Shown here piece by piece: positions 11,302 through 63,892 of a stretch of 64,000 bases of DNA (the first letter of the stretch is position 1; each line of letters begins with the position of its first letter). The stretch is from assembly GCA_947630765.1 (NCBI GenBank), contig CANRIX010000012.1, forward strand, positions 12,129 to 76,128, given 5' to 3'. Under the pieces are notes generated by a model. The model saw only the letters and a list, made by a program, of their open reading frames with translations. It was not told the origin of the DNA and did not search any database. Position numbers and translations under genes: made by a program. This DNA comes from an uncultured Clostridia bacterium (GTDB lineage: Bacteria > Bacillota > Clostridia > Oscillospirales > CAG-382).

Positions 11302-11313
11302 AAACGCAAAAAA

Positions 11314-11356
11314 GGCGACCGATTTGCCGCGAAAGCGGTCGGTCGCCCCTTTTTTT
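11314..11356 (+). terminator. Rho-independent terminator after capA
   Basis: GGCGACCGA (11314-11322) pairs with TCGGTCGCC (11339-11347), followed by CC and TTTTTTT (11350-11356). Confidence 0.85.
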
Positions 11357-11389
11357 ACAAATTTTTTACGGCGAACGGGGGAAAATCGG

Positions 11390-11418
11390 TTGCAATTCCC
11401 GAAGGAATGTGCTATAAT
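11390..11418 (+). promoter_or_regulatory. Sigma-A-type promoter of the CotH/VTC/DUF4956 operon
   Basis: TTGCAA (11390-11395), 17 nt, TATAAT (11413-11418) preceded by TGc (extended -10). It sits directly after the capA terminator. Confidence 0.7.
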
Positions 11419-11485
11419 ACACCGTCTTTGGACCCTTTGGGATTTCTTGGGATCTTTGCGGAATGCGGAGGGAGGTTCGTCGCAC

Positions 11486-14400: not shown

Positions 14401-14806
14401 CTACGACGTCGACCAGTCCTTCCGCTCGGCGGACTTCAATACGGTCGCCGAACACCTCAACCCGAACGGCACCGGCTCGATGGACCGATTCTCGACCGCC
14501 CTGATCAACGGACTTTTGCGCAATTCCGGCTTTCGCGAGCAGTTCCTGCGCCGGTTCGCGTGGCAGATGACGAACGTGTGGGCGGCGGACAAGGTGGTCG
14601 CCGCGATCGACGCCTATGAGCAGGCGATCCTGCCGGAGATGCAGCGGGACTGCGAGCGCTGGGACTTGAGCTTTTCGGACTGGCAGGCGCAGGTCGAGGG
14701 CGTGCGCAGCTTCGCGCGGCGGCGCGGACAGTACGTTCTTTCCCATTTGAAGGCGTATTTTTCGCTTTCGGAGGACGATCTGTGGACATACGGGTTCCCC
14801 GTTTGA
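11486..14806 (+). CDS. Membrane-anchored CotH-family atypical kinase with four lamin-tail (LTD) modules
   Basis: 1106 aa. ATG at 11486 after GGAGGGAGG; the ORF-track start at 11093 is a shadow over capA. Single N-terminal TM (IILLVAVALLAVVAVGLAV). Four LTD-like repeats are followed by a YYTLD..GSIRL chitobiase-C-like module. C-terminal CotH region: FLFRNTGQDY..LYLNGEFWGVYYIREK..FYDVDQSF. Confidence 0.85.
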   Translation: MWKKQEAKIILLVAVALLAVVAVGLAVDRYRTVTDVVPGEVEEVDLLITEVCAKNTSIVEDNGGKHADYIEIYNRGNDCDLEGFTLSDGKQTSEPFGPTPFASGEYKVFFVGWDSMGFSLSASGGETITLRNRDGSVAAQVTTVSMLEDQVMLWNGAGYELSDTPSPGFPNTREGSLAFTQGEPDENPSVTVSELLVSNRSSLPDENGVFCDVVELCNLTDAPVSLGGYYLSDRKENRFRYALPSVTLPVGGYFVVFCDSGSADSSDQPHAGFGLSVGETLYLTSPSGKYVSVEVPSLPDDRSLSLADGDYAESPVTLGFPNDETGEAAFLNSRIDADSPLVISELLLAGDGTPVGGALCDAVEVYNRSAEPVDTTGWHLTDGEDLLRYALPARTLAPGEYLVLYCDRQSGEGHTGFGLSVGETVRLVCPDFRYSEPVTCVSAGDGKSLRREEDGGEVAYRSGEVTMGFANTEDGAKQFASSVSPAELRISEALASNTKTLKGPYGTCCDWVELLNVSDQPIDLSGWYLSDDPDELRQGALPAETIAPGEYFVVFLSKTTENLLSGYPVLPFALSSEGDRLYLSHESGGTLTVADSVVLPGLPADISYGRPRGEDGFSALAEPSPGSANGASAALSAAPTAVTAQGVYNGVDGLDVVLTGPGPIYYTLDCSEPTVSSPVFGGSIRLTKTTVVRAICCEPGKMPSRTVDLTYLLNEGHTLPVATLVTTPENLWDYYTGIYVEGPGAEAEFPHVGANYWQPWEKEATVSLFEPDGGGFTSPCGIRIFGAYSRALAMKSFSCFFRASYGNSALRYPLFGEDGLDTYEAFLFRNTGQDYAKARMRDPLLADLISRETDVAVQKNRPVVLYLNGEFWGVYYIREKINENYVAGNYNVDQDQVDLTRANGTTSKAYQELISYVRGHDLSNQEAYDYVASQVDIDEYIDYIIAEIYIANTDNGNIKFFRATGGKWTWIFYDVDQSFRSADFNTVAEHLNPNGTGSMDRFSTALINGLLRNSGFREQFLRRFAWQMTNVWAADKVVAAIDAYEQAILPEMQRDCERWDLSFSDWQAQVEGVRSFARRRGQYVLSHLKAYFSLSEDDLWTYGFPV
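11621..13320 (+). repeat. Four tandem lamin-tail-domain (LTD)-like coding modules inside the CotH gene
   Basis: Modules start near 11621, 12053, 12503 and 12943. Each has the pattern [IV]SE[VL]...D.[VI]E[IL].N..d..[VI]dL.G[FWY].L[ST]D...(f)..lP...l.pGey.V.f, for example LITEVCAKN..DYIEIYNRGNDCDLEGFTLSDG and RISEALASN..DWVELLNVSDQPIDLSGWYLSDD. Confidence 0.7.
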
Positions 14807-14825
14807 ACCGGAAAGGAGCATTCGC

Positions 14826-15500
14826 GTGGCAACCAGACACGAGGAGAAGTTCCTCATCGACTACCGGCAGTACGTCCTGCTCCGCAGCCGTGCGGAAGCG
14901 GCGATGCGGCCGGACGAGCACGCCCCGGACGGGAGCTACCTGATCACGTCGCTCTACTATGACGACCGGCAGGACAGCGCGCTGGACGAAAAGCTGGACG
15001 GCGTGCGGGTGCATACGAAGTACCGCGTGCGGACCTATGGCGCGGACGGGGACTTCATCCGGCTGGAACGCAAGGTCAAGCGCGGGATCATGACCGAAAA
15101 GCACAGCACGTCCCTGCAGAGGGAGCAGATCCCCCTGCTGAGCGACCCAGCGACGGCGCTCGGAACCTTCTCTGGGCGGGGATTGGTGATGGCGGCGGAC
15201 ATGCGCTCGCGCGGGCTGCTGCCGTCCGTGACCGTCCGCTACCGGCGGGACGCGTTCGTCTACCCCGGGACCGACACCCGCCTGACGTTCGACACGCACG
15301 TTGAAGCGCTTCCGCCGACGGCGGAGCATCTTTTCGACGCGTCCGGCGCGGGCATTCCCGCCCTGCCGCCGCAGACCGTGGTGATGGAGGTCAAGTACGG
15401 GGAGTACCTGCCCGCGTTCGTGCGAAAGCTCAGCGCCGTCTGCGGCGGGATGCAGCTTTCCGTTTCCAAATATGCGCTTTGCCGTGCCGTATGGCACTGA
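14826..15500 (+). CDS. VTC-domain (polyphosphate-polymerase-like, CYTH-like tunnel fold) protein
   Basis: 224 aa. GTG lies 7 nt after AAGGAG. N-terminal RHEEKFLI..Y and alternating basic/aromatic strands (ITSLYYDD, TKYRVRTYG, IRLERKVK, MEVKY) are typical of bacterial VTC-domain proteins. No signal peptide or TM. Confidence 0.75.
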   Translation: MATRHEEKFLIDYRQYVLLRSRAEAAMRPDEHAPDGSYLITSLYYDDRQDSALDEKLDGVRVHTKYRVRTYGADGDFIRLERKVKRGIMTEKHSTSLQREQIPLLSDPATALGTFSGRGLVMAADMRSRGLLPSVTVRYRRDAFVYPGTDTRLTFDTHVEALPPTAEHLFDASGAGIPALPPQTVVMEVKYGEYLPAFVRKLSAVCGGMQLSVSKYALCRAVWH

Positions 15501-15527
15501 ATCTGAAGAGAAAGGAAAACAATCGTC

Positions 15528-16196
15528 ATGAGTTTTGCGGATACGATCAAAAAAAGCGTTCTGGAGGGGTTCCAATCGGACATCAGCGCGACCCGCGTGG
15601 TGCTGTCGCTGCTGTTTTCGTTGCTCGCGGCGCTCTTTATCCTGCTGATCTACCGGCTGACGATGCGGGGCATCGCCGCCAGCCGCGGTTACGAGATCAC
15701 GCTGCTTCTGGTGACGTCGATCAGCGCCATGATCGTGCTGACGATCACGTCCAACCTCGCGCTGTCGCTCGGCATGGTCGGTGCGCTCTCCATCGTGCGC
15801 TTTCGCACGGCGCTGAAGGAATCGTCGGACACGGCGTTCATGTTCTGGTGCGTCGCTGCGGGGATCACGTCCGGGGCGGGCTTCTACCTGATCACGCTTA
15901 TCGGCTGCCTGTTCATCGGGCTGGTCGCGCTCATCGCGTCGCGACTGACCCGCAACGGGACGCGGCCGTACCTGCTCGTGATCCGCACGGAAGCGGAAAA
16001 CACGGCGGCAAGCGTCGAAAAGCTGCTCGCGGAGAACCACGTCCACCGTCGCCTTTCCTCCCTCGTGCAGAACGACCGCTACGCGGAGATCATCTACGAG
16101 ATCAGCGTTTCCGCCGCCCAGCAGCGCCTGGTCGCCGCCGTCCGTACCCTGCCGGGCGTGACGACGGTTTCCCTCGTGGATTGCCGGAATTCCTGA
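15528..16196 (+). CDS. DUF4956-family integral membrane protein
   Basis: 222 aa. Several TM helices and the conserved LSIVRFRTALKESSDTAFMFW stretch, followed by a soluble C-terminal tail. It starts 27 nt after the VTC gene. Confidence 0.7.
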   Translation: MSFADTIKKSVLEGFQSDISATRVVLSLLFSLLAALFILLIYRLTMRGIAASRGYEITLLLVTSISAMIVLTITSNLALSLGMVGALSIVRFRTALKESSDTAFMFWCVAAGITSGAGFYLITLIGCLFIGLVALIASRLTRNGTRPYLLVIRTEAENTAASVEKLLAENHVHRRLSSLVQNDRYAEIIYEISVSAAQQRLVAAVRTLPGVTTVSLVDCRNS

Positions 16197-17578: not shown

Positions 17579-17614
17579 GGCGGGGAGAACGATCTGTTTT
17601 CCCCGCCTTTTTTT
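17579..17614 (+). terminator. Rho-independent terminator after the OadB/OadG-like pair
   Basis: GGCGGGGA (17579-17586) pairs with TCCCCGCC (17600-17607), followed by TTTTTTT (17608-17614). Confidence 0.85.
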
Positions 17615-17830: not shown

Positions 17831-17859
17831 TTGACTTTCTTTTGTCATTTTTGTATAAT
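17831..17859 (+). promoter_or_regulatory. Sigma-A-type promoter of the giant S8 protease gene
   Basis: TTGACT (17831-17836), 17 nt, TATAAT (17854-17859), inside a locally AT-rich stretch (about 17790-17900). This implies a leader of roughly 195 nt before the ATG at 18059. Confidence 0.65.
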
Positions 17860-18058
17860 GATTTTTAACATGGGGAGTAGTATTCCAAAAACTGCCTAAA
17901 CGCGGGCAGAGGATGCTGTTTTTCGGTGTAGGAAGGGTCTGGGCCGCCGGTTTCGGATCGAGGAGACGATGCGGGAGCGGCGGAACGGGAATTTTCCGGC
18001 GGGTGCTCCGCGATGCCTTGCGGAACGCCCGAAAAAAGTGTTGGAAAGGAAGGAATTT

Positions 18059-21000
18059 ATGAGCAAGTTCGGTACAAACAAGAGATGGATCGCATTGCTG
18101 CTGGCTGTCGTCATGCTGACGGGCATTCCGATCGCCACCGGCGCATTTTCCGTGAAAGCGGATGAATTCTTGCGGTTCACAGAAACTGACGTCTCGCCGG
18201 AGATCCATAAGGGCCTGGGCGATTTGCTGCCCGACGCCCCGCTTGCGCAGGAACCGGCGCCGGACGACGTGGTTCGTGTGTCCATCGTTCTGGAGGATGC
18301 ACCCACGCTGCAGAAAAAGTATTCCACCATCGGTATTGCGGCAAACGCAGAGGCAATGGCGTACAGCGATTCCCTGCGCGAGAAGCAGAATGCGGTGGAA
18401 AGCGTCATCGAGCGCGACGTCCTGCAGGGAAAACAGCTGGACGTGGTGTGGAATCTGACGCTCGCCGCCAACATCATCTCCGCAAACGTTGCATACGGGC
18501 GCGTTGACGCCATCAAATCCGTTTCCGGCGTCAAGGACGTCGTTTTGGAAAAGCAGTATGCGCCTGCGGTGGTAAATGATGAGCTGCCTGCCGACCCCAA
18601 CATGGGCACCTCCTCCGCTCAAATCGGTTCTCCTGCCGCTTGGGCCGGGAAGTTCTACGGTGCGGGAAGCAAAGTCGCGATCATCGACACGGGCATTGAT
18701 ACGAATCATCAGTCCTTCGACGAAGCGGCGTTCAATTACGCGCTCGAACAGCATGAAGTGACCGATACGCAAAAGGATTCCATGCTGACGGAGAAAGAGG
18801 TTCAGGAGCTTCTGAGCAAGCTGCATATCGCGGACCTCGCCGATCCGGACAAGATTTTCGTTTCCAATAAGATTCCGTTCGCATTCAACTATGTGGACGA
18901 AAACCACGATATTACGCACGACAATGACGAACAAGGCGAACACGGTTCCCACGTCAGCGGTATCGCTGCGGCAAACGCCTTTATCCCGCAGGGCGACGGT
19001 TTTGTTCCCGCGCTGGACGCGGTCAAGACGCAGGGCGTTGCGCCCGATGCGCAGATCCTGACTATGAAGGTGTTCGGTTCCAGCGGCGGCGCCTATGAAT
19101 CCGACTACATGGTCGCGATCGAGGACGCGATCCTGCTGGGTGCGGATTCCGTCAACCTGTCGCTGGGCTCCGCGGCGCCTGGTTTCGGCAACAGCGGCAT
19201 CTATGACGAAATCCTCAACGACCTGATGGTCAACAGCGACACGGTCGTTACCATGTCCGCCGGCAACAACGGCTACTGGGCGGAGAATTCCGAAGTCGGC
19301 GACCTGTTCGGCGACGACGTGAGCTTCCACACCGGCGGCTCGCCCGGAAGCTTTACGAATTCCCTCGCGGTCGCGTCCGTGGATAACGTCGGTCGTACCG
19401 ATTATTATGTCCGCGTGGGCGACAAAATGGTCTTCTATACCGATACCAACGCCAACTACGGGAAACCCGGTCTGGCTTCCATCGCCAGCGACGAGGCGTA
19501 CCCGTTTGTCTACCTCGACACGGTCGGTATTCATACGACGACGTTCCTCGGCACGATTACGGTGACGCTTGAGGATCAGCTTGAAGAGCTGGACGAGCAT
19601 CTGAAGGCGAACGGCGACGAAAACGGTCTGAAGGGCAAGGTCGTCCTTGTCAACCGCGGTATTTCGAGCTTCGCGCTCAAGTGCTCCGCCGCGGCGGAGC
19701 TCGGCGCGGCTGCCGTGATCATCGTCGACAATGCCCCGGGCAGCACCATCAACATGGATCTGACCGATTATACCGGCGAAGTGCCTGCCGTTGCCATTTC
19801 CATGGAGGACGGCGCCCTGTTCCGTGCCGGCGGCATTGCCGGAAAGGTTCCCGTTCAGTATGACAACGACGGCGAGAACAACCCGTGGGATGCGCCCTAC
19901 TACACCGGCGAATTCTACATTTCCGCGGAAGTCGGCTCCACCGACAGCGAAGCGGACCCGGACAATCGCTACACGATGTCCAGCTTCTCCTCCTGGGGCG
20001 TTCCCGGATCTCTGGTCATGAAGCCTGAGATCACCGCTCCCGGCGGAAACATCTATTCCGTCAACGGCGCGATCGAAAGCGGCGACGCTTACGAGAATAT
20101 GTCCGGCACCTCCATGGCGGCGCCGCAGGTGACCGGCATGGTTGCGGTCGTCGCGCAGTACATTCGCGAGAACGAGGCGAAGTTTGATCAGGTTGACTTC
20201 GACTATCGCCGCGCGCTCATCAACAGCCTGCTGATGTCCACGGCCAAGCCGGTCATCGCGGAGGACGGCAGTTACTACTCCATCCTCAGCCAGGGCGCCG
20301 GTCTTGCCAACGTCGGCGCGGCGATCCAGGCGCAGGCGGTCATTCAAATGGCGGAGAACGCCACGGCTTCCTATGCCGACGGCAAGGTCAAAGTCGAACT
20401 CGGCGACGACCCGAAGAAGGACGGCACCTACACGTATTCGTTCCTGATCACCAACGTGGGTGAAACGGATAATGAATACTTGCTTTCCACCGATCTGTTC
20501 ACGCAGGACCTGTACGAAGCGTATGGGTACACTTGGTTGGACACCGCGACCACGGAGCTGGGCGCATCGGTCAGCTACACGGTCCTCGCTGCTGATTTCA
20601 ATCGCGACGGCGTGACCGATTCGCGTGACGCGCAGGATATTCTTGATTATCTTTCCGACAGCGGCAAGATCGATCCTGAGACGGTCGATCCCGAAGCGGG
20701 CGATATGGACGGAGACGGCGAACTGACGACCTACGACGCGCATCTGATCCTTGCCGGGGCCGGCAAGACTGTCGATGCGGGCGCCGGTGATTCCATCGTC
20801 GTGGCCGCCGGCGAAACCGTCACGGTCAATGTTACCATCAACGTCAACAAGAGAGACCTTTCCGCTTACGAAAACGGCGCGTATGTCGAGGGTTACACCT
20901 TTGTGACGGCCGTTCCGAACGAAGAAGGCGTGCAGGATGTGGAGTACTCCATCCCGATCCTCGGGTTCTACGGGAATTGGAGCGAACCCTCCATGTTCGA

Positions 21001-24000
21001 CCGCACCAACTATCAGGAAACCGCGGATTACATCATTTACGGTCAGGACAGCGGGAATATCCCGTATAACAGCGATACGTCTATGTCCAACGTCCTGATC
21101 TATAAGGACAGCAACACCAAAGCCGAAGACGGAAAGCTCATCAACCCGTTCTATGCATACGGTCTCCCGGACCTCGGCGGTTTTGACTTCTACGATACCG
21201 ATGCGTCGCGCACCTCCATCAAGAGCAGCGACACGCTGGTCGGTTATGAATTCGCACTGATCCGCAACGCGTATGTGGCGGCCGTCATTGAAGATGCGGC
21301 GGGGAACGTCCTCGGTCTCACGGCTCCCACCGAGACAAACAGCGGATTCTACTACACCAACGGACAGGTTTGGCAGTCCCTCGTTTCCATGATGGGGATC
21401 AACCAGAAGGTTTCCGCGCTCGGACTTGACGAAGGCGACAGCTTCACCGTCAAGCTGGTTGCGCTGCCCGAATACTACTTCGGAAAAGCGCTTTCCGAGA
21501 GTGCGGAAGGCGAGCCGGTCAACACCGTTACTGCAAACGAGTTCCAGACCGTTTACAATACGGTCGAGATCGGAGATGGCGCGGTCCTTTCCACGACCAT
21601 GACCATTGACGATACCAAGCCGGAAATGCTTACGGCCCGCAGAAAGATGAGCGGCGAACTGGAGGTCACCCTGCAGGATAACCGTTATGTCGCGCACGTC
21701 AGCCTGAGAACGGCGGACGGCACCGGCTTCATCGACTGCGTTCTTCCCGAGCAAACCGCGCCGAACCAGGAATGCGTCGTCACCTTCCCGTGGCAAGAGG
21801 TCCAGACTCTTGTCAATGCGACTGAAGAAAACAAGGTCATGATCTATGTGGCCGACTACGCGGAGAACATTCACGCGTATATCATTGATCTGGCGACGGA
21901 AGAGGCCGAAGAAGCGGCTCCCACGGATATCGAACTTCCGGCGGAGGTCCACGTCTTTAACGGCGGCGTTTCCAGCGTCACGGCGACGATCCTCCCCTCG
22001 ATCATGACCGCGTCTGATTTGAACTGGTCGGTCGATAATCCCGAGGTCGCCGACGTGGACGAATTCGGAAACGTCACGGGTCTCAGCGTCGGCGAGGCGA
22101 CCCTCACCGCCGCTTCCAAGAAGGATCCTTCGATCAATGCGACCTCCAAGATCGTCGTCAAGGATGCGCCGAGCATTGATCTCGCAGGTATGGTCTTCAA
22201 CAAGGACAGCGAAACCTGGTGGAGCACCTTCAACCTGCAGGATCCCAGCCAATTCAAGCAAGTCGCGCAGGGTCCGGCGCTGTACGCGGGCGATTTCGCG
22301 CTTGGCTTCCAAACGATGTACGGGCATGACGGGACCAACGTCTGGAGAGTGGATATGAACACCTTCGAGTCGAAGTCGCTGTTTGCCATGAATCCGACAT
22401 ACCTGTTCCCGGACGCGGCTGTGAATAACTACTTTGCGGTGTATGGCGCGGGCGATTACGCGCTCCTTGCGCCGCAGGCGAACAGTGCGATCCTGATGAT
22501 CCTGCTGCCGGAAGCGGGCAATTTGTACACGGTCGATCTTTCGAGCGCGCTTCCCAGCAACATCTGCGCCATCGCGTTCAGCGGAATGGATGATTACAGT
22601 GAGCGCGACTACTACTACATGCTGCTGGAGAACGGCGACCTGTATCAGATTTATCTGTCCTCTGCCGGAAGCCTCGGCTACGGTCCGGTCGGCAACGTCG
22701 GCATGACCTTCGACGGCGCCGCCGCTGCGGACGGCACTTCGGTCACGTCCATGATGTACAGCTTCACCGCAAGAGAGTCGTTGTATCCGGACGGCATGAC
22801 CGAGCCGCTGCTCCTGACCCACTACAAGGAAGGGGACAGCACTGCGTATCTCTCCCTCATTGAAATCACCTTTGACGACATGGGCGATATCGCCTTCTGC
22901 GGAATCGCGGGTTCGATGCCCTTCGGCGACGCAGTCTGGCCGGTCAGCGCTCTGTACGATCCCGAGATGGTCGAGCCGGCTGACGAAGGCAACACCGTAC
23001 ACGCGCTTGCGGAGTACACGGTCGTCAACAACCTGTCCGACAAGATGTCGATGGTCGCCCCGGAAACCGAAAGCACTGCGCTCGGCGGAACGGGCAGCAC
23101 GTTCGTTCTGAATAAGAAGAACGGCGGCTCCGTCGCGCCCAATTCGATCGGCGTGGGCGGCAGCACGACCTACAACGTGGTGGATGTGGCGAACAACACC
23201 GTCACGATTGATATTTCTGCGGACGATTCTACGAACGGCCTGTTCAAGGTCGCCTGCCCTGCCGAACTGTCCCTGGTCAGTGTCGAGGGGTTGGTAGACT
23301 TCTATGCAAACGGCACTGCCGAGGATGGCTCCGTCGTCTTTGCATACGCCGACGCCGATTCTTTGACCTGCCCGGTCGCGAAACTGGTCTTCTCCTATGA
23401 GGAGGCGGACGAGTTGAAGCTGGTCGGGAAGACCGTCGATGTGACCACGGTCGAAGACGGCGAACCCGGCAAGGCGGAATCCGTCGAAACCATTCTGTTG
23501 ACCTTCGAGCCGGAGAGCTACGAGCTTTCTGTGCAGGTGGTTGACGGTTCTCACGATGCGCCGAATACCATCACCGAGGGCGAGGAAGCTTCCTTCACGA
23601 TCAAACCGAACGAAGGGTACAAACTGCCTGAGAGCGTCACCGTCACCATGAACGGTGAGGCGATGGATTCTGCGAACTACACCTACGATCCCGAAACCGG
23701 AGCTGTGACGCTGCAGAGCGACTACATCACCGGGCCGATCGTCGTCACGGCGTCCTGCGTCTACGTTCCGAAGGAATTCACGACCGACGCAGATGTGGAT
23801 AACGGCAGCACGACGATCCCGGAAACGGTGACCGAAGGCGAAGATGTTTCCTTCACGGTCAAACCGTCTGAAGGTTACAAGCTGCCTGAAAGCATCACGG
23901 TCAAGGTGAACGGCGTCGCTCTTGCGGCAGGTGACTACACCTACAACGCAGAGACCGGCGAAGTGGTGATTCCGGGCGACAAGGTGACTGGTCCGATCTC

Positions 24001-24319
24001 GGTTGAGGTCGCGTTTGTGGCTGCCGATGCCCCCGGAGACGAACCTTCTGAAGGCGACACTTCCTCCGGAGATACTCCCTCTGGTGGCGATACCTCCTCT
24101 GGTGACGACACCTCGAGCACGACGCCCGGAACTTCCTCCGGCGACGAAACTTCAAGCACGGCGCCCGGAACCTCTTCCGGCGACGAATCCACCAGCCCGA
24201 CCACGGGCGACGACGCGAGCATCCTGTTCTTCGCAATCATGGGTGTTCTGGCGCTGGTCGGCGCGATCTCGGCGGTGCGCCTGCGCAGATTTTCCCTTGA
24301 TGAAAAGCGTGGTCACTAA
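18059..24319 (+). CDS. Cell-surface subtilisin-like (S8, lactocepin/C5a-peptidase-type) protease with PA, dockerin-like, Big_2 and cohesin-like modules and a C-terminal SPxTG sorting signal
   Basis: 2086 aa from the ATG at 18059 (RBS GGAAAGGAAGG), with signal peptide MSKFGTNKRWIALLLAVVMLTGIPIATGAFSVKA. Catalytic triad contexts: VAIIDTGID, EHGSHVSGIAA, MSGTSMAAPQVTG. PA insert: GKVVLVNRGISSF..AAVIIVDN. The ORF-track start at 17969 adds 30 non-signal residues. Confidence 0.92.
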   Translation: MSKFGTNKRWIALLLAVVMLTGIPIATGAFSVKADEFLRFTETDVSPEIHKGLGDLLPDAPLAQEPAPDDVVRVSIVLEDAPTLQKKYSTIGIAANAEAMAYSDSLREKQNAVESVIERDVLQGKQLDVVWNLTLAANIISANVAYGRVDAIKSVSGVKDVVLEKQYAPAVVNDELPADPNMGTSSAQIGSPAAWAGKFYGAGSKVAIIDTGIDTNHQSFDEAAFNYALEQHEVTDTQKDSMLTEKEVQELLSKLHIADLADPDKIFVSNKIPFAFNYVDENHDITHDNDEQGEHGSHVSGIAAANAFIPQGDGFVPALDAVKTQGVAPDAQILTMKVFGSSGGAYESDYMVAIEDAILLGADSVNLSLGSAAPGFGNSGIYDEILNDLMVNSDTVVTMSAGNNGYWAENSEVGDLFGDDVSFHTGGSPGSFTNSLAVASVDNVGRTDYYVRVGDKMVFYTDTNANYGKPGLASIASDEAYPFVYLDTVGIHTTTFLGTITVTLEDQLEELDEHLKANGDENGLKGKVVLVNRGISSFALKCSAAAELGAAAVIIVDNAPGSTINMDLTDYTGEVPAVAISMEDGALFRAGGIAGKVPVQYDNDGENNPWDAPYYTGEFYISAEVGSTDSEADPDNRYTMSSFSSWGVPGSLVMKPEITAPGGNIYSVNGAIESGDAYENMSGTSMAAPQVTGMVAVVAQYIRENEAKFDQVDFDYRRALINSLLMSTAKPVIAEDGSYYSILSQGAGLANVGAAIQAQAVIQMAENATASYADGKVKVELGDDPKKDGTYTYSFLITNVGETDNEYLLSTDLFTQDLYEAYGYTWLDTATTELGASVSYTVLAADFNRDGVTDSRDAQDILDYLSDSGKIDPETVDPEAGDMDGDGELTTYDAHLILAGAGKTVDAGAGDSIVVAAGETVTVNVTINVNKRDLSAYENGAYVEGYTFVTAVPNEEGVQDVEYSIPILGFYGNWSEPSMFDRTNYQETADYIIYGQDSGNIPYNSDTSMSNVLIYKDSNTKAEDGKLINPFYAYGLPDLGGFDFYDTDASRTSIKSSDTLVGYEFALIRNAYVAAVIEDAAGNVLGLTAPTETNSGFYYTNGQVWQSLVSMMGINQKVSALGLDEGDSFTVKLVALPEYYFGKALSESAEGEPVNTVTANEFQTVYNTVEIGDGAVLSTTMTIDDTKPEMLTARRKMSGELEVTLQDNRYVAHVSLRTADGTGFIDCVLPEQTAPNQECVVTFPWQEVQTLVNATEENKVMIYVADYAENIHAYIIDLATEEAEEAAPTDIELPAEVHVFNGGVSSVTATILPSIMTASDLNWSVDNPEVADVDEFGNVTGLSVGEATLTAASKKDPSINATSKIVVKDAPSIDLAGMVFNKDSETWWSTFNLQDPSQFKQVAQGPALYAGDFALGFQTMYGHDGTNVWRVDMNTFESKSLFAMNPTYLFPDAAVNNYFAVYGAGDYALLAPQANSAILMILLPEAGNLYTVDLSSALPSNICAIAFSGMDDYSERDYYYMLLENGDLYQIYLSSAGSLGYGPVGNVGMTFDGAAAADGTSVTSMMYSFTARESLYPDGMTEPLLLTHYKEGDSTAYLSLIEITFDDMGDIAFCGIAGSMPFGDAVWPVSALYDPEMVEPADEGNTVHALAEYTVVNNLSDKMSMVAPETESTALGGTGSTFVLNKKNGGSVAPNSIGVGGSTTYNVVDVANNTVTIDISADDSTNGLFKVACPAELSLVSVEGLVDFYANGTAEDGSVVFAYADADSLTCPVAKLVFSYEEADELKLVGKTVDVTTVEDGEPGKAESVETILLTFEPESYELSVQVVDGSHDAPNTITEGEEASFTIKPNEGYKLPESVTVTMNGEAMDSANYTYDPETGAVTLQSDYITGPIVVTASCVYVPKEFTTDADVDNGSTTIPETVTEGEDVSFTVKPSEGYKLPESITVKVNGVALAAGDYTYNAETGEVVIPGDKVTGPISVEVAFVAADAPGDEPSEGDTSSGDTPSGGDTSSGDDTSSTTPGTSSGDETSSTAPGTSSGDESTSPTTGDDASILFFAIMGVLALVGAISAVRLRRFSLDEKRGH
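20594..20758 (+). other. Internal dockerin-like (duplicated EF-hand-type Ca-binding) module of the S8 protease
   Basis: DFNRDGVTDSRDAQDILDYL ... DMDGDGELTTYDAHLILAG: two D-x-[ND]-x-D-G-x-x-x-x-x-D loops, each followed by a helix, about 35 aa apart. Confidence 0.6.
23168..23515 (+). other. Cohesin-like beta-sandwich module of the S8 protease (tentative)
   Basis: TYNVVDVANNTVTIDISADDSTNGLFKVACPAELSLVSVEG..GSVVFAYADADSL..VAKLVFSYE follows the cohesin pattern (selected strand, x-x-[FV]-x-[YC]-[DP]-x-x-[VL]-x-[LV], later G-x-[IV]-x-F.. and [IV]A.[IL].F). The call is by eye only. Confidence 0.4.
23516..24019 (+). repeat. Two tandem ~84-aa repeat domains in the S8 protease C-terminal region
   Basis: R1 (23516-23773) and R2 (23774-24019) align throughout: T[IV]TEGE[ED].SFT[IV]KP[NS]EGYKLPES[VI]TV..NG.a....YTY[DN].ETG.V....D..TGPI.V. 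Confidence 0.8.
24194..24316 (+). other. Sortase-type cell-wall sorting signal with SPxTG motif
   Basis: SPTTG (24194-24208), then the hydrophobic stretch ASILFFAIMGVLALVGAISAV, then the basic tail RLRRFSLDEKRGH. It is preceded by a Ser/Thr/Gly/Asp-rich linker (24019-24193). Confidence 0.7.
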
Positions 24320-24423: not shown

Positions 24424-24463
24424 AACAGCACGGAGAGCAGAAATGCTTTCTGTGCTGTTTTTT
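24424..24463 (+). terminator. Rho-independent terminator after the S8 protease gene
   Basis: AACAGCAC (24424-24431) pairs with GTGCTGTT (24452-24459), with additional inner pairing, followed by TTTT. Confidence 0.7.
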
Positions 24464-24757: not shown

Positions 24758-26302
24758 TTATTTTTTATTTGTCTTAAACGTTTCGATCAGACTGTCCAGG
24801 GCCGTTTGCGCCGCGCTTTCCAGCGATTGATAGGCGGACGTGAATTGTCCGGGCGTCTGAGACGCGAGGCTGGTCAGCATCGTCGAAAGGTTGTTCGAGG
24901 CGTCGCCGAGCGTGTAGATGTGCGCAAGGTCGGTGCCGGTGGTGCTGAAGATGATGTCCAGCATCTCCTTATCCTCGTCCGTGTGGAGCTTTTGATACTG
25001 CAAAACCACGTCGTAGTAGGTCTTGGCGACGGTATCAACGGAGTAGCCGCCGAGCGCGTCGAGAATGACCTGCGCCTGGTAGGATCTCGTTTCGTCCAGT
25101 CCGGCGGGAATGCAGTAGGCGTTCGACGACCAAGCGCCGATCATCGTGTAGTACTGTCCCTGCTCCAAATCGTACATCGGGGCAGGCAGAAGACCGAACT
25201 CGCCCTCCATGTCGCCGAGTCGGAGCGCCGTTTCCGCGTTGCCGGAATAGAACAGGCACCGATTCGCCTTGAAGGCCTCCTCGAGCAGGATCATCGGCGT
25301 GGGGGATTCGCTGAAGAAGTCGTCGCCGAGCACGTATTCCGCGTCGTTCTGCATGAGGGAGATGATTTTATCGACGACGTTGGAGCTTCTCTGGTTGTAC
25401 ATCGAGAGGATCAACGTGTCCTGCTCGTCCGGGCGGACGATGCGTTCGCCGGAGGCGTAGAACAGGTTGTGCATATCGCCGTTTTGCCCGCTCCAGCCGT
25501 AGGAGTCGTGGTAGGTGATGATCCCGTCGCCGTCAAGGTCCTGGCTGAGCCCGACCTGCGAAATGATGGAAAGCACCTCGTCGAGGGTCCATTTCATATC
25601 CCGCACGGTCTGGTAGGGATACTCCAGGCCGTACTGGTCAAACAGCGTCTTGTTGAAGTAGATGCAGTTGGCGGCGTTCTTGGCGCGCAGGCCGATGTCG
25701 CCGGTCAGATAGTAGGTGCTGCCCCCGATGGAGGTGTCCTTGATGATGATCTGGTCCCACCACGGGTTGGAGACGTCGATTCCCTCGGCGCTGCTGAGGT
25801 CGAGCAGCAGCCCGTTCGCCGCCATCGTCCCCGCGTCGATCAGGCAGGGGTAGTAGATGTCGTAGTCGAACGTACCGGCGGCCGCAAATTGCTGGACGGC
25901 GGACAGAAAACTGCCGTTATACCGCTTCGGGTCGATCTCAATTTTTTCCTCGATCTTGACGCCATACGCGTCCTCGACCAGGCGGGTGCGGTTCACGATC
26001 TCGTCGCTGAGCACCTTGGGACAGGTTTCGTTATTCTCGTTATTGCCGATCTCGGTGACGTATGCGTCGTTGAAGGCTGCGGTAAAGACCTTGACGGTCT
26101 GCCCTTGAAACGCGTCCGTTTCGACGAGATGTCCTTCGGCTTCCGAGGGGGCTGCCCTGCTGACCGCGTCAGAGGATCCGCTGGCAGACGTATCGGCTTC
26201 GCCCGATTCTTCCGCGCAGCCTGCGCAGACCACGGCGCAGAGTAGCGAAAGCAGCAGGCAGAGCGCGACGGTCGCTTTGACATGCAAATGCAGGTGTTTC
26301 AT
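24758..26302 (-). CDS. Lipoprotein, extracellular solute-binding protein-like (ABC-type SBP, family 1-like), orphan
   Basis: 514 aa from the ATG at 26302. Lipoprotein signal MKHLHLHVKATVALCLLLSLLCAVVCAGC. SBP-like body (TVKVFTAAFND.., NPWWDQ, YYLTGD). The ORF-track entry to 26797 is a shadow extension. It has its own promoter and terminator. Confidence 0.6.
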   Translation of the reverse strand: MKHLHLHVKATVALCLLLSLLCAVVCAGCAEESGEADTSASGSSDAVSRAAPSEAEGHLVETDAFQGQTVKVFTAAFNDAYVTEIGNNENNETCPKVLSDEIVNRTRLVEDAYGVKIEEKIEIDPKRYNGSFLSAVQQFAAAGTFDYDIYYPCLIDAGTMAANGLLLDLSSAEGIDVSNPWWDQIIIKDTSIGGSTYYLTGDIGLRAKNAANCIYFNKTLFDQYGLEYPYQTVRDMKWTLDEVLSIISQVGLSQDLDGDGIITYHDSYGWSGQNGDMHNLFYASGERIVRPDEQDTLILSMYNQRSSNVVDKIISLMQNDAEYVLGDDFFSESPTPMILLEEAFKANRCLFYSGNAETALRLGDMEGEFGLLPAPMYDLEQGQYYTMIGAWSSNAYCIPAGLDETRSYQAQVILDALGGYSVDTVAKTYYDVVLQYQKLHTDEDKEMLDIIFSTTGTDLAHIYTLGDASNNLSTMLTSLASQTPGQFTSAYQSLESAAQTALDSLIETFKTNKK

Positions 26303-26337
26303 GGTCAAATGTTCCTTTCTGTTTTTCGTTTCACCAC

Positions 26338-26366
26338 AGTATACCATATTTCCTGCGGAAATGCAA
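26338..26366 (-). promoter_or_regulatory. Sigma-A-type promoter (minus strand) of the second SBP-like gene
   Basis: Read on the minus strand: TTGCAT (26366-26361), 17 nt, TATACT (26343-26338). Confidence 0.6.
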
Positions 26367-26377
26367 GGGCAAACGGC

Positions 26378-26425
26378 ACAAAAAATACAAAAGACCGGCG
26401 GTTCCACGTTTAGGTGGAGCCGCCG
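26378..26425 (-). terminator. Rho-independent terminator (minus strand) ending the murQ / GDPD / cohesin-dockerin unit
   Basis: On the minus strand, CGGCGGCTCCAC pairs with GTGGAACCGCCG (11 of 12 bp; plus coordinates 26396-26425), followed by GTCTTTTGTATTTTTT. Confidence 0.7.
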
Positions 26426-26442
26426 ATCTCGCAGGAAAGTAT

Positions 26443-27237
26443 TTACTGCAATCGGAAGGTGCCGAGGACGTGCCGCTTGATCAACATGTAATCCGTCGCG
26501 TTGGTCCCGCCGTCCCAGTTCACGTCTGCGAGACGCATCTGCCTGTCCGTGAGCCGGAAGGTGCGAAGGACGTGCCGCTTGACCAGCAGATAGTCCGTCG
26601 CGTTGACCTTGCCGTCGCCGGAGACGTCGCCGTTCACGCCGTCCGGCGCGACCAGGTTCAGCCGGAGCGAGAACCGCTCTTCCGCGACGCGGAGGGCGCC
26701 GGACGCAGAGGAAAGGGAATTTTCCGGCGAAACCGTTGGGGAGCCCGGCGTCACCGTGACCGTTGTCGTGACCCCGGACTTGCGCGGACGAAAGCAAACG
26801 CTAAACAGCGTGCCGCTTGCGCGGGAGCGGTTGACGGCGCTCCCGGACGTGACGGTAAGCTCCCCCTGCGCCGCCATGGAGACGTTGACTGTTGTTACAT
26901 CGCCGTCGGGGATCATGGTCCAGCCGTCCGAATAAGCGTCGGTGAAGCAGCAGCCGGTATTCCGTTCGGACTGCGGAGTGCGCGCCAGTTCGAGCACCGT
27001 CGGGTCCCAGCGGACCGTGACGACGTAGGACGCGATCTTCGATTCGCCGCTCCCTGCCGAAAGGTTGACGGCGACGCGGAACAGGTCGGCGTCCGTCCCG
27101 CCGACGGAGATGTCGTCCGTTCGGACGGAGGCGGAAAACCTCGCTTGCGCGGCAGACGCGGCGCCGGCAGGAAACGAAAACGCGAACAGCAGCGCCAGCG
27201 CGAATGCGAGGAAAAGCAAACGTTTTTGGGCTTTGAT
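26443..27237 (-). CDS. Secreted cohesin-like + dockerin protein (small adaptor/scaffoldin-like)
   Basis: After the signal-like segment KAQKRLLFLAFALALLFAFSFPAGA comes a cohesin-like module (about 26740-27141: LFRVAVNLSAGSGESKIASYVVTVRWDPTVLEL..GTLFSVCFRPRK). Then a C-terminal dockerin (26446-26631: GDVSGDGKVNATDYLLVKRHVL..DVNWDGGTNATDYMLIKRHVLGTF). The start is uncertain: ATC 27237, TTG 27219 or TTG 27321; there is no in-frame ATG or GTG. Confidence 0.65.
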   Translation of the reverse strand: MKAQKRLLFLAFALALLFAFSFPAGAASAAQARFSASVRTDDISVGGTDADLFRVAVNLSAGSGESKIASYVVTVRWDPTVLELARTPQSERNTGCCFTDAYSDGWTMIPDGDVTTVNVSMAAQGELTVTSGSAVNRSRASGTLFSVCFRPRKSGVTTTVTVTPGSPTVSPENSLSSASGALRVAEERFSLRLNLVAPDGVNGDVSGDGKVNATDYLLVKRHVLRTFRLTDRQMRLADVNWDGGTNATDYMLIKRHVLGTFRLQ

Positions 27238-27267
27238 GGTGCAGACCCCCTTTTGCGAAGGTTTGTG

Positions 27268-27298
27268 GAAAGAGGGCGTCCGGCGGACGCCCTCTTTC
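27268..27298 (-). other. Strong intercistronic stem-loop between the GDPD and cohesin-dockerin genes
   Basis: GAAAGAGGGCGTCC / GGACGCCCTCTTTC: about 14 bp of perfect pairing around a 3-nt loop. No clean T-run follows on the minus strand, so it does not look like a full terminator. Confidence 0.7.
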
Positions 27299-27313
27299 GA
27301 TTTGGGTTGAGAA

Positions 27314-30300
27314 TTATGCAAAGAGATTGAAACTCTTGAGCACGTGACGCTTGATCAGCATGTAGTCGTTCGCATTGATTTCATCTTTGCTGTCCACCAT
27401 GACGTCCGCCGCGAGCGTCTGGATGTCGGTGAGCTTAAACGTTTTGAGCGCGCCGCGCTTGACGAGCATGTAGTCGAACGCGTCGACCTTGCCGTTGCTG
27501 TTGATGTCGCCGCGGACGATGATGGTCGCCTTCTTGCCCTTGTACTCGATCGTATAGCCGTTGCCGATGACGTCGACGTCGGTGACTTCTTCGCCTTTCG
27601 CGTCATAGATCTTCGCGTTTCCTGCGTCCGCGATGGCGAGCAGGAAATCCTTCGCAGAGGTCTTTTCCGCGACGCCGGTCAGCTTGTCGCCGTCGAGCGT
27701 GTAATCCGTGCTGTTGACCGTCAGGGTGTCAATATCGCCGACTTTGACGGTGATCGGCTGGGTGTACAGCGTATACTTGGTCGCGCCGTCCGGCATGGTC
27801 GCCTCGTAGGAAACCATGACCGTCGCTTCGCCGTTCTTCTTCGCGGTCAGCGTGCCATCCTCGTTGACTTCGACGACGCCGTCGTTATCGAGCGGGATGA
27901 TCTTGGCCGACGCGCCGATGCTGGTGCTGCCGTTGCCGTAGGTAACAGCCTTGGCGTTGAGCGCGAAGGTGTTGTTCGTGGCCGCTCTAATGGTGTCCGG
28001 CGCGGTGATGGTCTTGACCACGGTCTTGAAGTACGCCGCGTCATTGGTCGTAAGCCCGTTCATGCCGGCGAGGAACATCTGGTTGACGGTTGAGCGGACG
28101 CTGGACGAATAGGTCCAGGTCCAGAACGTCATGCCGCGGTCGCCCGCATCGCGAATATATTCCGCGTTGATGCCGCCGTAGGACGGGCCAAGCGTACCGT
28201 TGCAGTTGAGCGCGCTGGTCTGGAGCGAGTAGTAGCCGTTGAGGACCGCTGCCGTGTCCGTGACTTGCGCGACCGTGCCGCCGAGCAGGTCGGCGCAGGT
28301 GTTCAGTTCCTGCTTGATGAGACGGACCTGATTGCTGTGGAAGCTGATGTAGACGACCTGGTCTTCCATTTCGTATTTCTTGACCAGTTCGGCGGTCTTT
28401 TTCGGCAGCTCCGCCTGATCTTCCTTCAGCTCGCAGAGGATCTTGATGTCCTTATCCTTGAATTCGATGAGCATTTCCTCGAAGGTCGGGATCGGTTCGT
28501 CCGTGCCGTCGAGCGTGTATTGACGAAGCTCGTCAAAGGTCTTGTCGTGGATATAGCCCGTGCCGGCGGTGGTGCGGTCGATGGTGTCGTCGTGCATGAC
28601 CATGACGACGCCGTCCTTGGAAAGGTGCACGTCGGTTTCGAGGTTATCCACGCCCTCTCTGTAGGCGGCTCTGTAGGCGGCCATGGAGTTCTCCGCGTAC
28701 TTTTCCGAGTAGCCTCTGTGCGCGGTGTAGACCGAGGTGCGGGTCAGGGAATTCTCCGCGGTAAAGAGCTTGGTTTCCGCTTCCGAAACCAGCGCGTAGT
28801 TGTCGGAAATGACCGCATTCGCGCCGGAAGCCAGCAGATAGGCCGCCTGGGTATTGGTGGTGACGCCCGTGCCGAGCGCCCAGACGGAAAGCTGGAACTG
28901 CTGCAGCACCGCGACGTTCTCCTTGGTTGCGAGCGCGTACGGCAGCAGGATGCCCTGCGCGTTTGCGCCGGCGGCCGTCTGGTACGCGGCAAAGCGCTCG
29001 TCGGCGGTCATGGTTTCCGCCGTGACTTCGTAGATACCGCGGAGGTTCGCAGGTCTCTGCTCACGCGCGGACTTCAAAAGTTCGGCGCTCGGCGTGACGA
29101 CCACGGCTTCCGGCACCAGCGTGCTCTTGAGCGCCGTGACCAGATTGGTCAGCTGCGCATCGGTAGTGATGCGGAATTCCGGAATGATCTTTTTGTCGTA
29201 GCAGGTCGTCAGATAGGTCTCGAATTTAGCGGCGGTAACGTCAGCCGCGACGTCCAGCAGGACCGCGACCGGGCGCTTCTCGGCGTTGACGATCGCGTTG
29301 AACGCGGCTTCGTCCTTCGCGTAAGCCTGGTCGGACACATAGCTGGTGATGTTGGATTGCGGACGGTTTGCGCTGGTGTCGATCAGATTATCCCGCTCCG
29401 GCAGTTTTTCCGGCGCCTGCTCCATCACGGTGACCTTGATGGAATCCACGTTCAGAACGCCCTGGTCGGAGAGAAGACCGAGGAGACCGGTGGTTTCTTC
29501 GTGCTTGGTGTTCTTCAGCTTGGAGATGTCCTCCACATAAATGGCCCGCTCTCCGTCCACCGAGAAGGCGGCGGAACCGCCGAAGAGGTTGAGGGTGAGG
29601 TCGTGGTAGCCGGTGATCATGTTCAGCACATAGGAGATGCGAAGGTCATATTCGGTGTTTACATAAGGATATTCCCACGCCCCGTTGTGCATCCCCGAAA
29701 ATTCGAGGGTGTTGGCGGTCTGATTGGCGCGAATGGTAATGTGGCGCTCCTCTTTGTAGGTACCGTCGTCCTTCACATGGAACATAATGGCGCTCCAGCG
29801 AGCGGAGTTGGCGACTTCCGTCTGGCTGGCGCTCATCGTGATGGCGTAATCGCCGAAGTCTCCCAGCCATTTCGGGAGCATGAGCTTGGATTGTCCGATG
29901 CTTGTCGCGCCCAAGTGCAGCGCACCGTCGGAGACGCTGTACGGGGAAGCGCCGCCGGCCGCATTTTTCCCTTCGATCCAGCCGTCTGCGGCGAGGGAAG
30001 CGGTGGTAGCCGAATCAAAATCGTTTTCGTACAGGACGAACTCGGTTTCATCCGGGTTCTTCGCGACCACATAGACGTTTTTGGTGGTCGTCCCGGCGGT
30101 CGCGGTCAGCGTCGTCACGCCTTTTTTATCCGGCGTGACCGTGGTGACGGCGCTGTCGCCGTTCTTCCAGGTGATGTCCTTGGCGGCGAGGGTGGTGTTT
30201 GCATCGACCTGAACGCTGACCTTCGTCAAGTCGATTTCCGTGCCCACGTCGACGGTCAACGCCGGGTTGGTGTAGGTCAGGGTGATCTCGGCGCTTTCCG

Positions 30301-30388
30301 CCACCGTCGCGGGAACGGAAAGGGACGAAACGACCGTTGCCAGCATCAACACAGTGAGCAGGACGGAAAGAATGCGTTTTGCTTTCAT
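27314..30388 (-). CDS. Secreted multidomain glycerophosphodiester phosphodiesterase (GDPD) with Big_2, LamG/ConA-like and C-terminal dockerin modules
   Basis: 1024 aa from the ATG at 30388 (RBS AAGGAG), with signal MKAKRILSVLLTVLMLATVVSSLSVPATVAES. GDPD core at about 28100-28740 (YTAHRGYS..ENSMAAY..ETDVHLSKDGVVMVMHDDTIDRTT). Dockerin at 27317-27511 (GDINSNGKVDAFDYMLVKRGAL..EINANDYMLIKRHVLKSF). The ORF-track start at 30931 is a shadow over murQ. Confidence 0.88.
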   Translation of the reverse strand: MKAKRILSVLLTVLMLATVVSSLSVPATVAESAEITLTYTNPALTVDVGTEIDLTKVSVQVDANTTLAAKDITWKNGDSAVTTVTPDKKGVTTLTATAGTTTKNVYVVAKNPDETEFVLYENDFDSATTASLAADGWIEGKNAAGGASPYSVSDGALHLGATSIGQSKLMLPKWLGDFGDYAITMSASQTEVANSARWSAIMFHVKDDGTYKEERHITIRANQTANTLEFSGMHNGAWEYPYVNTEYDLRISYVLNMITGYHDLTLNLFGGSAAFSVDGERAIYVEDISKLKNTKHEETTGLLGLLSDQGVLNVDSIKVTVMEQAPEKLPERDNLIDTSANRPQSNITSYVSDQAYAKDEAAFNAIVNAEKRPVAVLLDVAADVTAAKFETYLTTCYDKKIIPEFRITTDAQLTNLVTALKSTLVPEAVVVTPSAELLKSAREQRPANLRGIYEVTAETMTADERFAAYQTAAGANAQGILLPYALATKENVAVLQQFQLSVWALGTGVTTNTQAAYLLASGANAVISDNYALVSEAETKLFTAENSLTRTSVYTAHRGYSEKYAENSMAAYRAAYREGVDNLETDVHLSKDGVVMVMHDDTIDRTTAGTGYIHDKTFDELRQYTLDGTDEPIPTFEEMLIEFKDKDIKILCELKEDQAELPKKTAELVKKYEMEDQVVYISFHSNQVRLIKQELNTCADLLGGTVAQVTDTAAVLNGYYSLQTSALNCNGTLGPSYGGINAEYIRDAGDRGMTFWTWTYSSSVRSTVNQMFLAGMNGLTTNDAAYFKTVVKTITAPDTIRAATNNTFALNAKAVTYGNGSTSIGASAKIIPLDNDGVVEVNEDGTLTAKKNGEATVMVSYEATMPDGATKYTLYTQPITVKVGDIDTLTVNSTDYTLDGDKLTGVAEKTSAKDFLLAIADAGNAKIYDAKGEEVTDVDVIGNGYTIEYKGKKATIIVRGDINSNGKVDAFDYMLVKRGALKTFKLTDIQTLAADVMVDSKDEINANDYMLIKRHVLKSFNLFA

Positions 30389-37472: not shown

Positions 37473-37504
37473 GTTTTGTTCGTCCTTTCGCACGCTTTTT
37501 GTTC

Positions 37505-62892: not shown

Positions 62893-62973
62893 GACTGACA
62901 TATCCTTTCCCGTTGGATTTACTCGCTTTAGTGTTGACCGGAACATTGGGAATTATACCCGAGCGGCGGGAAA

Positions 62974-63018
62974 GAAAAAACGCACGGGGGGCTTTTGCAA
63001 ACGACCCTCTGTGCGTTT
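62974..63018 (-). terminator. Rho-independent terminator (minus strand) separating the AT-rich island gene from the glucan synthase gene
   Basis: On the minus strand, AAACGCACAGAGGG pairs partially with CCCCCCGTGCGTTT (outer 8 bp AAACGCAC/GTGCGTTT perfect), followed by TTTTTC. A TATAAT (minus strand, plus coordinates 62952-62957) lies between it and the synthase start. Confidence 0.6.
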
Positions 63019-63161
63019 GGGATATTGGAAAGATTACTTTTCGATGGCGGCATTTTTTGAACGCGTTCGCCCTGTAAGTCGCGGAAAAACCAAAACGGTT
63101 CACCGATTTTTCGGGAAAATTTGCTTAACCTTTGGGGCGTACTTCAAATCAATAAGGCGGT

Positions 63162-63773: not shown

Positions 63774-63892
63774 AATATATGTCTCCTTTTTCCATTGTGT
63801 GGCAAAGGCTTTTGAAAAAAGACTTCGCCCGAAAACCACCGCTTAGGCTGCCGGCGGTCTTGACCACAGATGGGATCTTACTCGTATTTTAC

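Follow-up and report, generated by a model that had tools for sequence, protein, structure and literature searches.

Streptococcal C5a peptidase (ScpA/ScpB) and SpyCEP (ScpC) are cell-envelope subtilases in which Fn3-type domains and then a sortase signal at the C-terminus follow an S8 catalytic domain with a PA insert. The lactocepin-type proteinases PrtP, PrtS and PrtB/PrtH are wall-bound subtilases with a role in nutrition; they have a prodomain, a PA insert, a long stalk and an anchor that is either of the LPXTG type or non-covalent. Here we describe a gene of this general type at positions 18059-24319 (forward strand) of a 64,000-nucleotide (nt) stretch of DNA from an uncultured Clostridia bacterium (assembly GCA_947630765.1, contig CANRIX010000012.1; the whole stretch is called the window below). 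It is a real open reading frame (ORF) with a product of 2086 amino acids (aa), and we believe that this product is quite probably a cell-envelope protease of an uncultured gut Clostridia bacterium of the Oscillospiraceae type, a subtilase of many domains that is secreted and anchored to the cell wall. C5a peptidase and SpyCEP are about half its size, carry LPXTG instead of SPxTG, and are without a dockerin insert in Fn3_5, a propeller or a cohesin. The lactocepin-type proteinases have the theme of a swappable anchor in common with the family of the window protein, but their stalk domains are non-homologous and include no cohesin or dockerin modules. It is the predicted combination of an Fn3_5-embedded dockerin, a propeller and a cohesin that sets the window protein apart from all characterised cell-envelope subtilases.

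Among the amylosome proteins of Ruminococcus bromii, the enzyme Amy4 (Sca1) has both a cohesin and a dockerin and can autoaggregate, and the cohesin protein Sca2 has a C-terminal sortase signal (PMC4611034). R. bromii belongs to the same broad lineage of gut bacteria as the window organism. In Amy4 the enzyme is a GH13 amylase and the dockerin is terminal, whereas the window protein is an S8 protease with its predicted dockerin embedded in Fn3_5 and with a predicted cohesin and anchor on the same chain. The main new point of our analysis is the family-wide pairing of one predicted internal dockerin with one predicted cohesin.

Homologue counts refer throughout to the best 120 (E<=1e-272) of more than 3,900 database proteins that match at E<=1e-5, or to 121 sequences when the window protein is included. 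The window protein is composed of the following modules.

18059-18160, forward strand: signal peptide, aa 1-34, MSKFGTNKRWIALLLAVVMLTGIPIATGAFSVKA, read by eye from the translation
18161-18658, forward strand: N-terminal pro-region, aa 35-200, conserved in 120 of 120 homologues
18659-20398, forward strand: S8 subtilase catalytic domain, aa 201-780 (PF00082, E 3e-40)
19622-19816, forward strand: PA domain inserted in the catalytic domain, aa 522-586 (PF02225, E 4.4e-12)
20429-20908, forward strand: Fn3_5 domain, aa 791-950, split by the dockerin insert (fn3_5 profile)
20588-20773, forward strand: dockerin type I-like insert, aa 844-905, with two Ca-loop/helix repeats, DFNRDGVTDSRD... and DMDGDGELTTYD... 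(PF00404)
20909-21928, forward strand: middle stalk region, fold not assigned, aa 951-1290, in 120 of 120 homologues at 33-38% identity
21938-22123, forward strand: Big_2 Ig-like domain, aa 1294-1355 (PF02368, E 3.3e-8)
22160-22978, forward strand: predicted beta-propeller, aa 1368-1640 (AlphaFold2, AF2, and Foldseek)
22979-23158, forward strand: low-confidence linker, aa 1641-1700 (predicted local distance difference test score, pLDDT, below 50 at model residues 293-339)
23159-23503, forward strand: divergent cohesin-like beta-sandwich, aa 1701-1815 (AF2 and homologous modules)
23516-24019, forward strand: two tandem 84-aa Ig-like repeats, aa 1820-1903 and 1904-1987 (55% identity, E 3e-28)
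24020-24193, forward strand: Ser/Thr/Gly/Asp/Pro-rich, putatively wall-spanning linker, aa 1988-2045 (translation)
24194-24319, forward strand: predicted cell-wall sorting signal, made up of SPTTG, a helix, an RLRR-containing tail and the stop codon (translation and motif scan)

In the intact protein, Pfam finds only the C-terminal half of fn3_5 (aa 911-951; profile positions 62-100). When aa 844-905 were deleted in silico, a continuous fn3_5 match over positions 10-100 appeared with 34 bits and E 5.4e-8 (cut-off 27.6 bits; the intact region scores 28.7 bits in isolation). Because the deletion restores the continuous match, we conclude that the dockerin-like module is an insertion in the Fn3_5 domain. 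Its Dockerin_1 (PF00404) match at aa 845-896 reaches 23.1 bits against a cut-off of 22.9, and 28.1 bits when the region is isolated. A profile built from 23 inserts of the family matches solved type I dockerins over both repeats with E values from 2.7e-9 to 1e-6, whereas the same profile gives ~4e-4 against the EF-hands of calmodulin. The Ca-ligand positions D846, N848, D850, D854 and D857 of the first loop and D882, D884, D886 and D893 of the second are Asp (at some positions Asp or Asn) in 98-118 of the 121 sequences, and both helices are nearly invariant among them. On this profile evidence, the Fn3_5 insert is a genuine dockerin homologue. The first-pass annotation of this DNA had noted the dockerin-like Ca-loop pair, which these matches bear out. 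The idea of a terminal attachment device in competition with the anchor is not supported, as the insert is internal to Fn3_5.

The cohesin-like module was modelled by AF2 with a pLDDT of 87 as nine strands and one short helix. A Foldseek search with this model returned the Clostridium perfringens cohesins 2jh2 and 2w1n (template modelling (TM) scores 0.54-0.58) and 2vo8 (TM 0.44), together with cohesins of R. flavefaciens. The C. perfringens modules, from GH84C and GH33, are the closest solved cohesins, and they too are found in large secreted non-cellulolytic enzymes. Their identity to the window module is 9-17% (E ~2e-3), and they partner terminal dockerins on other enzymes. PF00963 was matched by 10 of 24 homologous modules, which are 24-79% identical to the window copy, with a best E of 1.9e-6, and the top PDB match of the family cohesin profile is a cohesin, though a non-significant one (E 0.45). 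Two results weigh against the assignment. The window copy itself has no PF00963 match at E<=0.1, and the Foldseek matches to cohesins are weak (~2e-3) and mixed with Ig-like domains of Als/MSCRAMM adhesins, all at E 5e-4 or weaker. Divergent cohesin-like is a fair label for aa 1701-1815 as modelled; the module had been called cohesin-like from the translation, and this call agrees with the Pfam matches of its homologues and with the resemblance of the model to solved cohesins, which is not a unique one.

An inspection of the homologues indicated how widely the two modules occur together. The best 120 are S8 peptidases of 1.4-3.0 thousand residues (kaa), and their sources, where named, are metagenome-assembled genomes (MAGs) of Oscillospiraceae, Ruminococcaceae, Candidatus Faecousia or Eubacteriales. 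The N-terminal ~1,300 residues are common to all 120. By module-wise BLAST, the pro-region, the head, Fn3_5 with its dockerin and the middle region were found in 120/120, the propeller in 104/120, the cohesin-like module in 49/120 and the Ig repeats in 19/120. Hidden Markov models (HMMs) of the family are more sensitive than this BLAST. They detected one dockerin-like module in each of the 121 sequences, at the Fn3_5 position in 111, and exactly one cohesin-like module in 105; most of the sequences without a cohesin-like module are shorter (1.4-1.8 kaa) and apparently truncated. The composite Fn3_5::dockerin segment was further found in 266 representatives of 50%-identity clusters (E<=1e-10), almost always at residues ~750-950 of proteins of 2-3.8 kaa, in gut bacteria of the Oscillospiraceae type.

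The C-termini of the same homologues vary in kind. Whereas 28/120 end in xPxT(G/A) followed by a helix and a K/R tail (SPSTG, NPGTG, TPKTG, PPATG, SPMTG, IPNTA), ~57 end in SLH repeats instead, and therefore we regard the C-terminus as a swappable wall anchor. One homologue (P0086) ends in a canonical C-terminal dockerin and has the internal dockerin as well; with the terminal dockerin, this protease core has a third way of being anchored. As judged from these alignments, the core of the family is fixed (head, Fn3_5-embedded dockerin, propeller and one cohesin), and the anchor alone is interchangeable, being SLH repeats, a sortase signal or a terminal dockerin. The first-pass annotation had considered the C-terminal half unusual and the presence of a dockerin beside a covalent anchor atypical. 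In a family of about 270 clusters at 50% identity, however, this build proved to be the rule, with a dockerin-like module in every one of the best 120 homologues and a cohesin-like module in nearly all that are full-length.

The nearest relatives of the window protein come from two rabbit-gut MAGs (81-83% identity), one of which has a syntenic locus; everything else in the genome and metagenome scans is at most 51% identical. A 1361-aa fragment in the representative library (P0121) is 100% identical to the window protein, and a search for the exact sequence of the whole 2086-aa product found no record. Literature searches turned up no paper on an S8 protease in which an Fn3-embedded dockerin is combined with a cohesin. 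The family is common in databases, generically annotated and experimentally untouched.

We favour a reading, unproven as it is, in which the internal dockerin and the cohesin would bind each other, whether within one molecule (in cis) or from one molecule to its neighbour (in trans), and would organise a surface protease layer. The one-to-one presence of the modules in 105/121 sequences holds whatever the anchor type, which supports the pairing, as does the near-invariance of the dockerin helices. In a mirror-tree comparison with S8 divergence controlled, the correlation between dockerin and cohesin was 0.40, compared with 0.24 for dockerin and middle region, 0.16 for dockerin and propeller, 0.28 for cohesin and middle region and 0.23 for cohesin and propeller. 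In this weak and non-specific test, dockerin and cohesin are each other's strongest partner; against the pairing, the middle region and the propeller correlate more highly still, at 0.59. The dockerin of R. bromii Amy4 binds its own cohesin (PMC4611034), which is a precedent for self-pairing. A more specific form of the same reading is that a self-complementary dockerin-cohesin pair would link the proteases head-to-tail or fold each back on itself, giving a "self-scaffolding" layer that is independent of the anchor and distinct from the recruitment seen in the cellulosome and the amylosome. Judged from the sequences, this specific form is unlikely, and we put it forward as a tentative proposal.

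The explanation that competes best with binding is a purely structural one. The dockerin-like insert might be a Ca-binding element that stabilises the junction between Fn3_5 and the protease, and the cohesin-like module a beta-sandwich spacer, neither of them engaged in binding. The insert is internal and not terminal, and it is unusually invariant in a family that is otherwise 40-50% identical, as would also fit a packed element. Calcium sites are commonly used by subtilases for stability, and the cohesin assignment is built on weak scores. Yet the family profile prefers genuine dockerins over EF-hands by about five orders of magnitude, across both repeats, and the one-to-one co-occurrence with a cohesin-like module, like the partial correlation between the two, would have to be coincidence. 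We give the structural explanation an appreciable chance, although one that stays short of even.

Dockerins are also encoded close to the protease gene, on the reverse strand. The gene at 26443-27321 (reverse strand) encodes a small secreted protein of 292 aa with a C-terminal Dockerin_1 domain (E 5e-16); the ORF as listed probably starts too early, and the gene is syntenic in a sister genome (L001). Its N-terminal domain matches Cohesin weakly but over nearly the whole profile (positions 16-124 of 139; E 0.005, 17.5 bits), and on this domain pair the product may be a mini adaptor scaffoldin. An hhalign comparison of this 292-aa protein with the cohesin profile of the S8 family gave a probability of 1.3%. 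At 27314-30388 (reverse strand) lies a GDPD glycerophosphodiester phosphodiesterase and at 36597-37493 (reverse strand) a GDSL/SGNH lipase, each with a canonical terminal dockerin and symmetric NAxDYMLVKRxVLGTF helices. These predicted dockerin enzymes point to a non-cellulolytic cohesin-dockerin system with a dockerin subtype unlike the S8 insert.

The window protease might thus be an anchoring scaffoldin in addition, with its cohesin-like module displaying these dockerin enzymes on the wall. Three neighbouring genes with strong Dockerin_1 modules speak for this possibility, and so do the order S8 protease, dockerin protein and GDPD-dockerin enzyme, which is kept in L001, and the combination of a cohesin with a sortase signal, which is the layout of the anchoring scaffoldins ScaE and Sca2. 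However, the neighbouring dockerins, with their symmetric helices, are of another subtype than the S8 insert, and no dockerin genes stand beside the family members in five other gene-listed loci, so the synteny with L001 reflects close relatedness only. The weak cohesin match of the 292-aa protein could, moreover, serve those dockerins itself. We consider a scaffoldin role improbable and return to the reading in which the dockerin and the cohesin of the protease pair with each other.

The protein ends in a recognisable pattern, SPTTG-DDAS-ILFFAIMGVLALVGAISAV-RLRR-FSLDEKRGH. SPTTG occupies aa 2046-2050 (24194-24208) and begins 41 residues from the C-terminus, and the hydrophobic helix of 19 residues spans aa 2055-2073 (24221-24277). 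Sortase substrates of Clostridioides difficile have a signal peptide, a motif 17-45 residues from the C-terminus, a hydrophobic segment and a basic tail, and SrtB of this species cuts (S/P)PxTG between Thr and Gly (PMC4155245). The window protein has all of these features, with the signal peptide read by eye, and both motif class and spacing match the SrtB substrates. The homologues differ from the SrtB motif in that the first residue can also be N, T, G or I (NPGTG, TPKTG, IPNTA), and the consensus of the lineage is xPxT(G/A). An (S/P)PxTG-type signal of the SrtB class had been proposed from the translation, and it is strengthened by the recurrence of this kind of signal in 28 diverged homologues. 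Because the motif recurs at a fixed position before the helix, selection by a sortase can be argued, and we infer covalent wall anchoring of the protease.

Several observations weigh against this anchoring. Gram_pos_anchor of Pfam scores 16.5 bits, below its cut-off of 20, and the TIGRFAM LPXTG-anchor models also remain below their cut-offs. Classic sorting signals have shorter tails than the one that follows RLRR here (FSLDEKRGH). No sortase (PF04203) was found by Pfam scans of the 38 ORFs of the window, and none stands in the gene lists within 10 kb of six family members. Nor was one found among 1,254 ORFs from the window and ~20 related loci by phmmer with an approximate Staphylococcus aureus SrtA query and a TLxTC scan, which is a weak test. 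That the C-terminus is a plain transmembrane anchor, which would leave the protein tethered to the membrane with no sortase processing, would agree with this lack of a sortase in the window and related loci, with the sub-threshold anchor HMMs and with a long cytoplasmic tail of mixed charge, but it has only a small chance of being right, since 28 diverged homologues keep a Pro-x-Thr-Gly/Ala motif a short, constant distance ahead of the helix, which is not expected of a simple transmembrane segment, the other helix-ended C-termini, read by eye, include two near-variants of the motif (NPGTTG in P0009 and GAQTG in P0107), and a Ser/Thr/Gly/Asp linker typical of wall-spanning segments lies just upstream.

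With a sortase-processed C-terminus, a route to the cell surface can be proposed. The protein would be exported by the Sec system through its N-terminal signal peptide, and the pro-region would then be removed. A sortase would cut SPTTG between Thr2049 and Gly2050 and the product would be linked covalently to peptidoglycan. The Ser/Thr-rich linker would cross the wall, and a stalk of ~1,200 residues, composed of Fn3_5, the middle region, Big_2, the propeller, the cohesin-like module and the two Ig repeats, would keep the S8/PA head off the cell. The head is predicted to degrade extracellular proteins, most likely for nutrition.

The assignment of the head is based on several searches. The n-region of the signal peptide is basic, its core is hydrophobic and its cleavage context has small residues, as seen by eye rather than with a dedicated predictor. 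The pro-region has no Pfam match and is presumed to be a prodomain by analogy with cell-envelope subtilases. Peptidase_S8 (PF00082) matches aa 201-730 with 138.7 bits (cut-off 21.8), and the catalytic triad and the oxyanion Asn are intact: D210 (IIDTGID), H295 (HGSHVSG), N403 (SAGNNG) and S685 (GTSMAAP). The PA domain (46.4 bits, cut-off 23.9) is located within this S8 match. The best PDB matches are C5a peptidase (7edd, E 2.8e-35; 1xf1, E 7.5e-27) and SpyCEP (5xya, E 2.7e-29), with alignments that stop near residue 770-790. NF040553, the model for the LPXTG-anchored serine peptidases SGO_0316/SGO_0317, is the best NCBIfam model for the head (E 1.6e-46), and at 158.7 bits against a cut-off of 1400 the window protein falls outside that family. 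Placement with the C5a-peptidase/lactocepin type of cell-envelope subtilases, as first suggested from the catalytic motifs and the PA insert, is in line with Fn3_5 and with the best PDB matches as well.

For the middle stalk region, no Pfam match was obtained at E<=1. The Big_2 domain, which the first-pass annotation had put at around 21930-22160, is detected by Pfam at nearly that position with 33.8 bits (cut-off 22.8). The stretch 22160-23160 had been left as uncharacterised, and structure prediction turned it into a high-confidence beta-propeller followed by a disordered linker. Blockwise pLDDT of the propeller is mostly 85-97, and every Foldseek match to it is a propeller (YWTD, WD40, lactonase, integrin alpha) at E 6e-7 to 1e-4 with a low TM score. 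A PDB search with the single sequence of aa 1368-1840 gave nothing significant. The two 84-aa repeats, expected at 23516-24019 from the translation, are there (23516-23767 and 23768-24019) and have weak matches to Big_4, Shr-like_HID and Flg_new_2. Tandem Repeats Finder (TRF) detected no DNA-level tandem repeat for the 84-aa units, which are too diverged; it detected the linker repeat alone, a 39-nt unit in 2.8 copies at 24092-24201.

The gene itself is well delimited by signals on both sides.

17831-17859, forward strand: sigma-70-type promoter, TTGACT-17 nt-TATAAT, with 11 of 12 consensus matches
17866-18058, forward strand: 5' leader of ~190 nt with three predicted hairpins (minimum free energy -83.7 kcal/mol, z -4.55)
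24426-24463, forward strand: intrinsic terminator, 14-bp stem, 4-nt loop and U6 (dG -43.2 kcal/mol, z -6.61)

Two in-frame starts, 17969 and 18059, are candidates for the ORF ending at 24319. The start at 17969 was rejected: its ATG is lost in a sister genome, where an alignment gap suggests a broken frame, no ribosome-binding site was noted upstream of it, and it would add 30 residues before the signal peptide. The ATG at 18059 opens straight into the signal peptide and is preceded by the ribosome-binding site GGAAAGGAAGGA at 18043-18054, in agreement with the start chosen at first. The G+C content of the window is ~60%. The -10 hexamer of the promoter is identical in the sister genomes L001 and L004, and the -35 hexamer is nearly so (TTGAC kept). 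An oxaloacetate-decarboxylase beta gene lies upstream and has its own terminator at 17579-17607. None of 200 shuffled sequences was as stable as the hairpin of the protease terminator. The protease gene, with its own promoter and its own downstream terminator, is monocistronic. The promoter, leader and terminator that had been predicted for it all hold.

The leader is more structured than shuffled controls and is 79-84% identical in nt to the leaders of the two sister genomes, with just one compensatory pair among the three sequences compared. No Rfam riboswitch or leader family matches it at E<=1, and a sub-threshold traJ_5 match sits upstream of the promoter. The leader may be a cis-regulatory RNA specific to the lineage, or no more than an untranslated region that diverges slowly.

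Other genes of the window were inspected as well. Before the protease gene, 11093-16196 (forward strand) encodes a large CotH-kinase protein that also has four lamin-tail domains and, from chitobiase, a C-terminal domain; genes for a VTC-domain protein and a DUF4956 protein come next, and their order is kept in L001. At 24758-26797 (reverse strand), the listed ORF of 679 aa overlaps the next gene, and the real start is probably MKHLHLHVKATV..., which gives ~513 aa as in L001. The product starting at MKHLHLHVKATV has a lipoprotein-type signal with Cys and no Pfam match, and it resembles an extracellular solute-binding lipoprotein. A 2371-aa ORF at 55831-62946 (reverse strand) contains a GT2-type glycosyltransferase, a glucoamylase-like domain and the supersandwich and catalytic domains of GH94. 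Cyclic beta-1,2-glucan synthases have this layout, which is unexpected in a Clostridia genome. The G+C content of 62001-64000 is 0.527, compared with ~0.67 in the preceding 6 kb.

The Oscillospiraceae are abundant anaerobes of the gut whose extracellular proteolysis is almost unstudied, and this gene is a clean, full-length and well-delimited member of the main family of giant surface proteases in them. Family members of the sortase type use xPxT(G/A) and not LPxTG. If the dockerin-cohesin pair is non-functional, the gene is simply a well-annotated cell-envelope protease. If the pair is functional, it would offer engineering a compact binding module that is naturally orthogonal, and cohesin-dockerin assembly would extend from carbohydrate-degrading complexes to the display of proteases.

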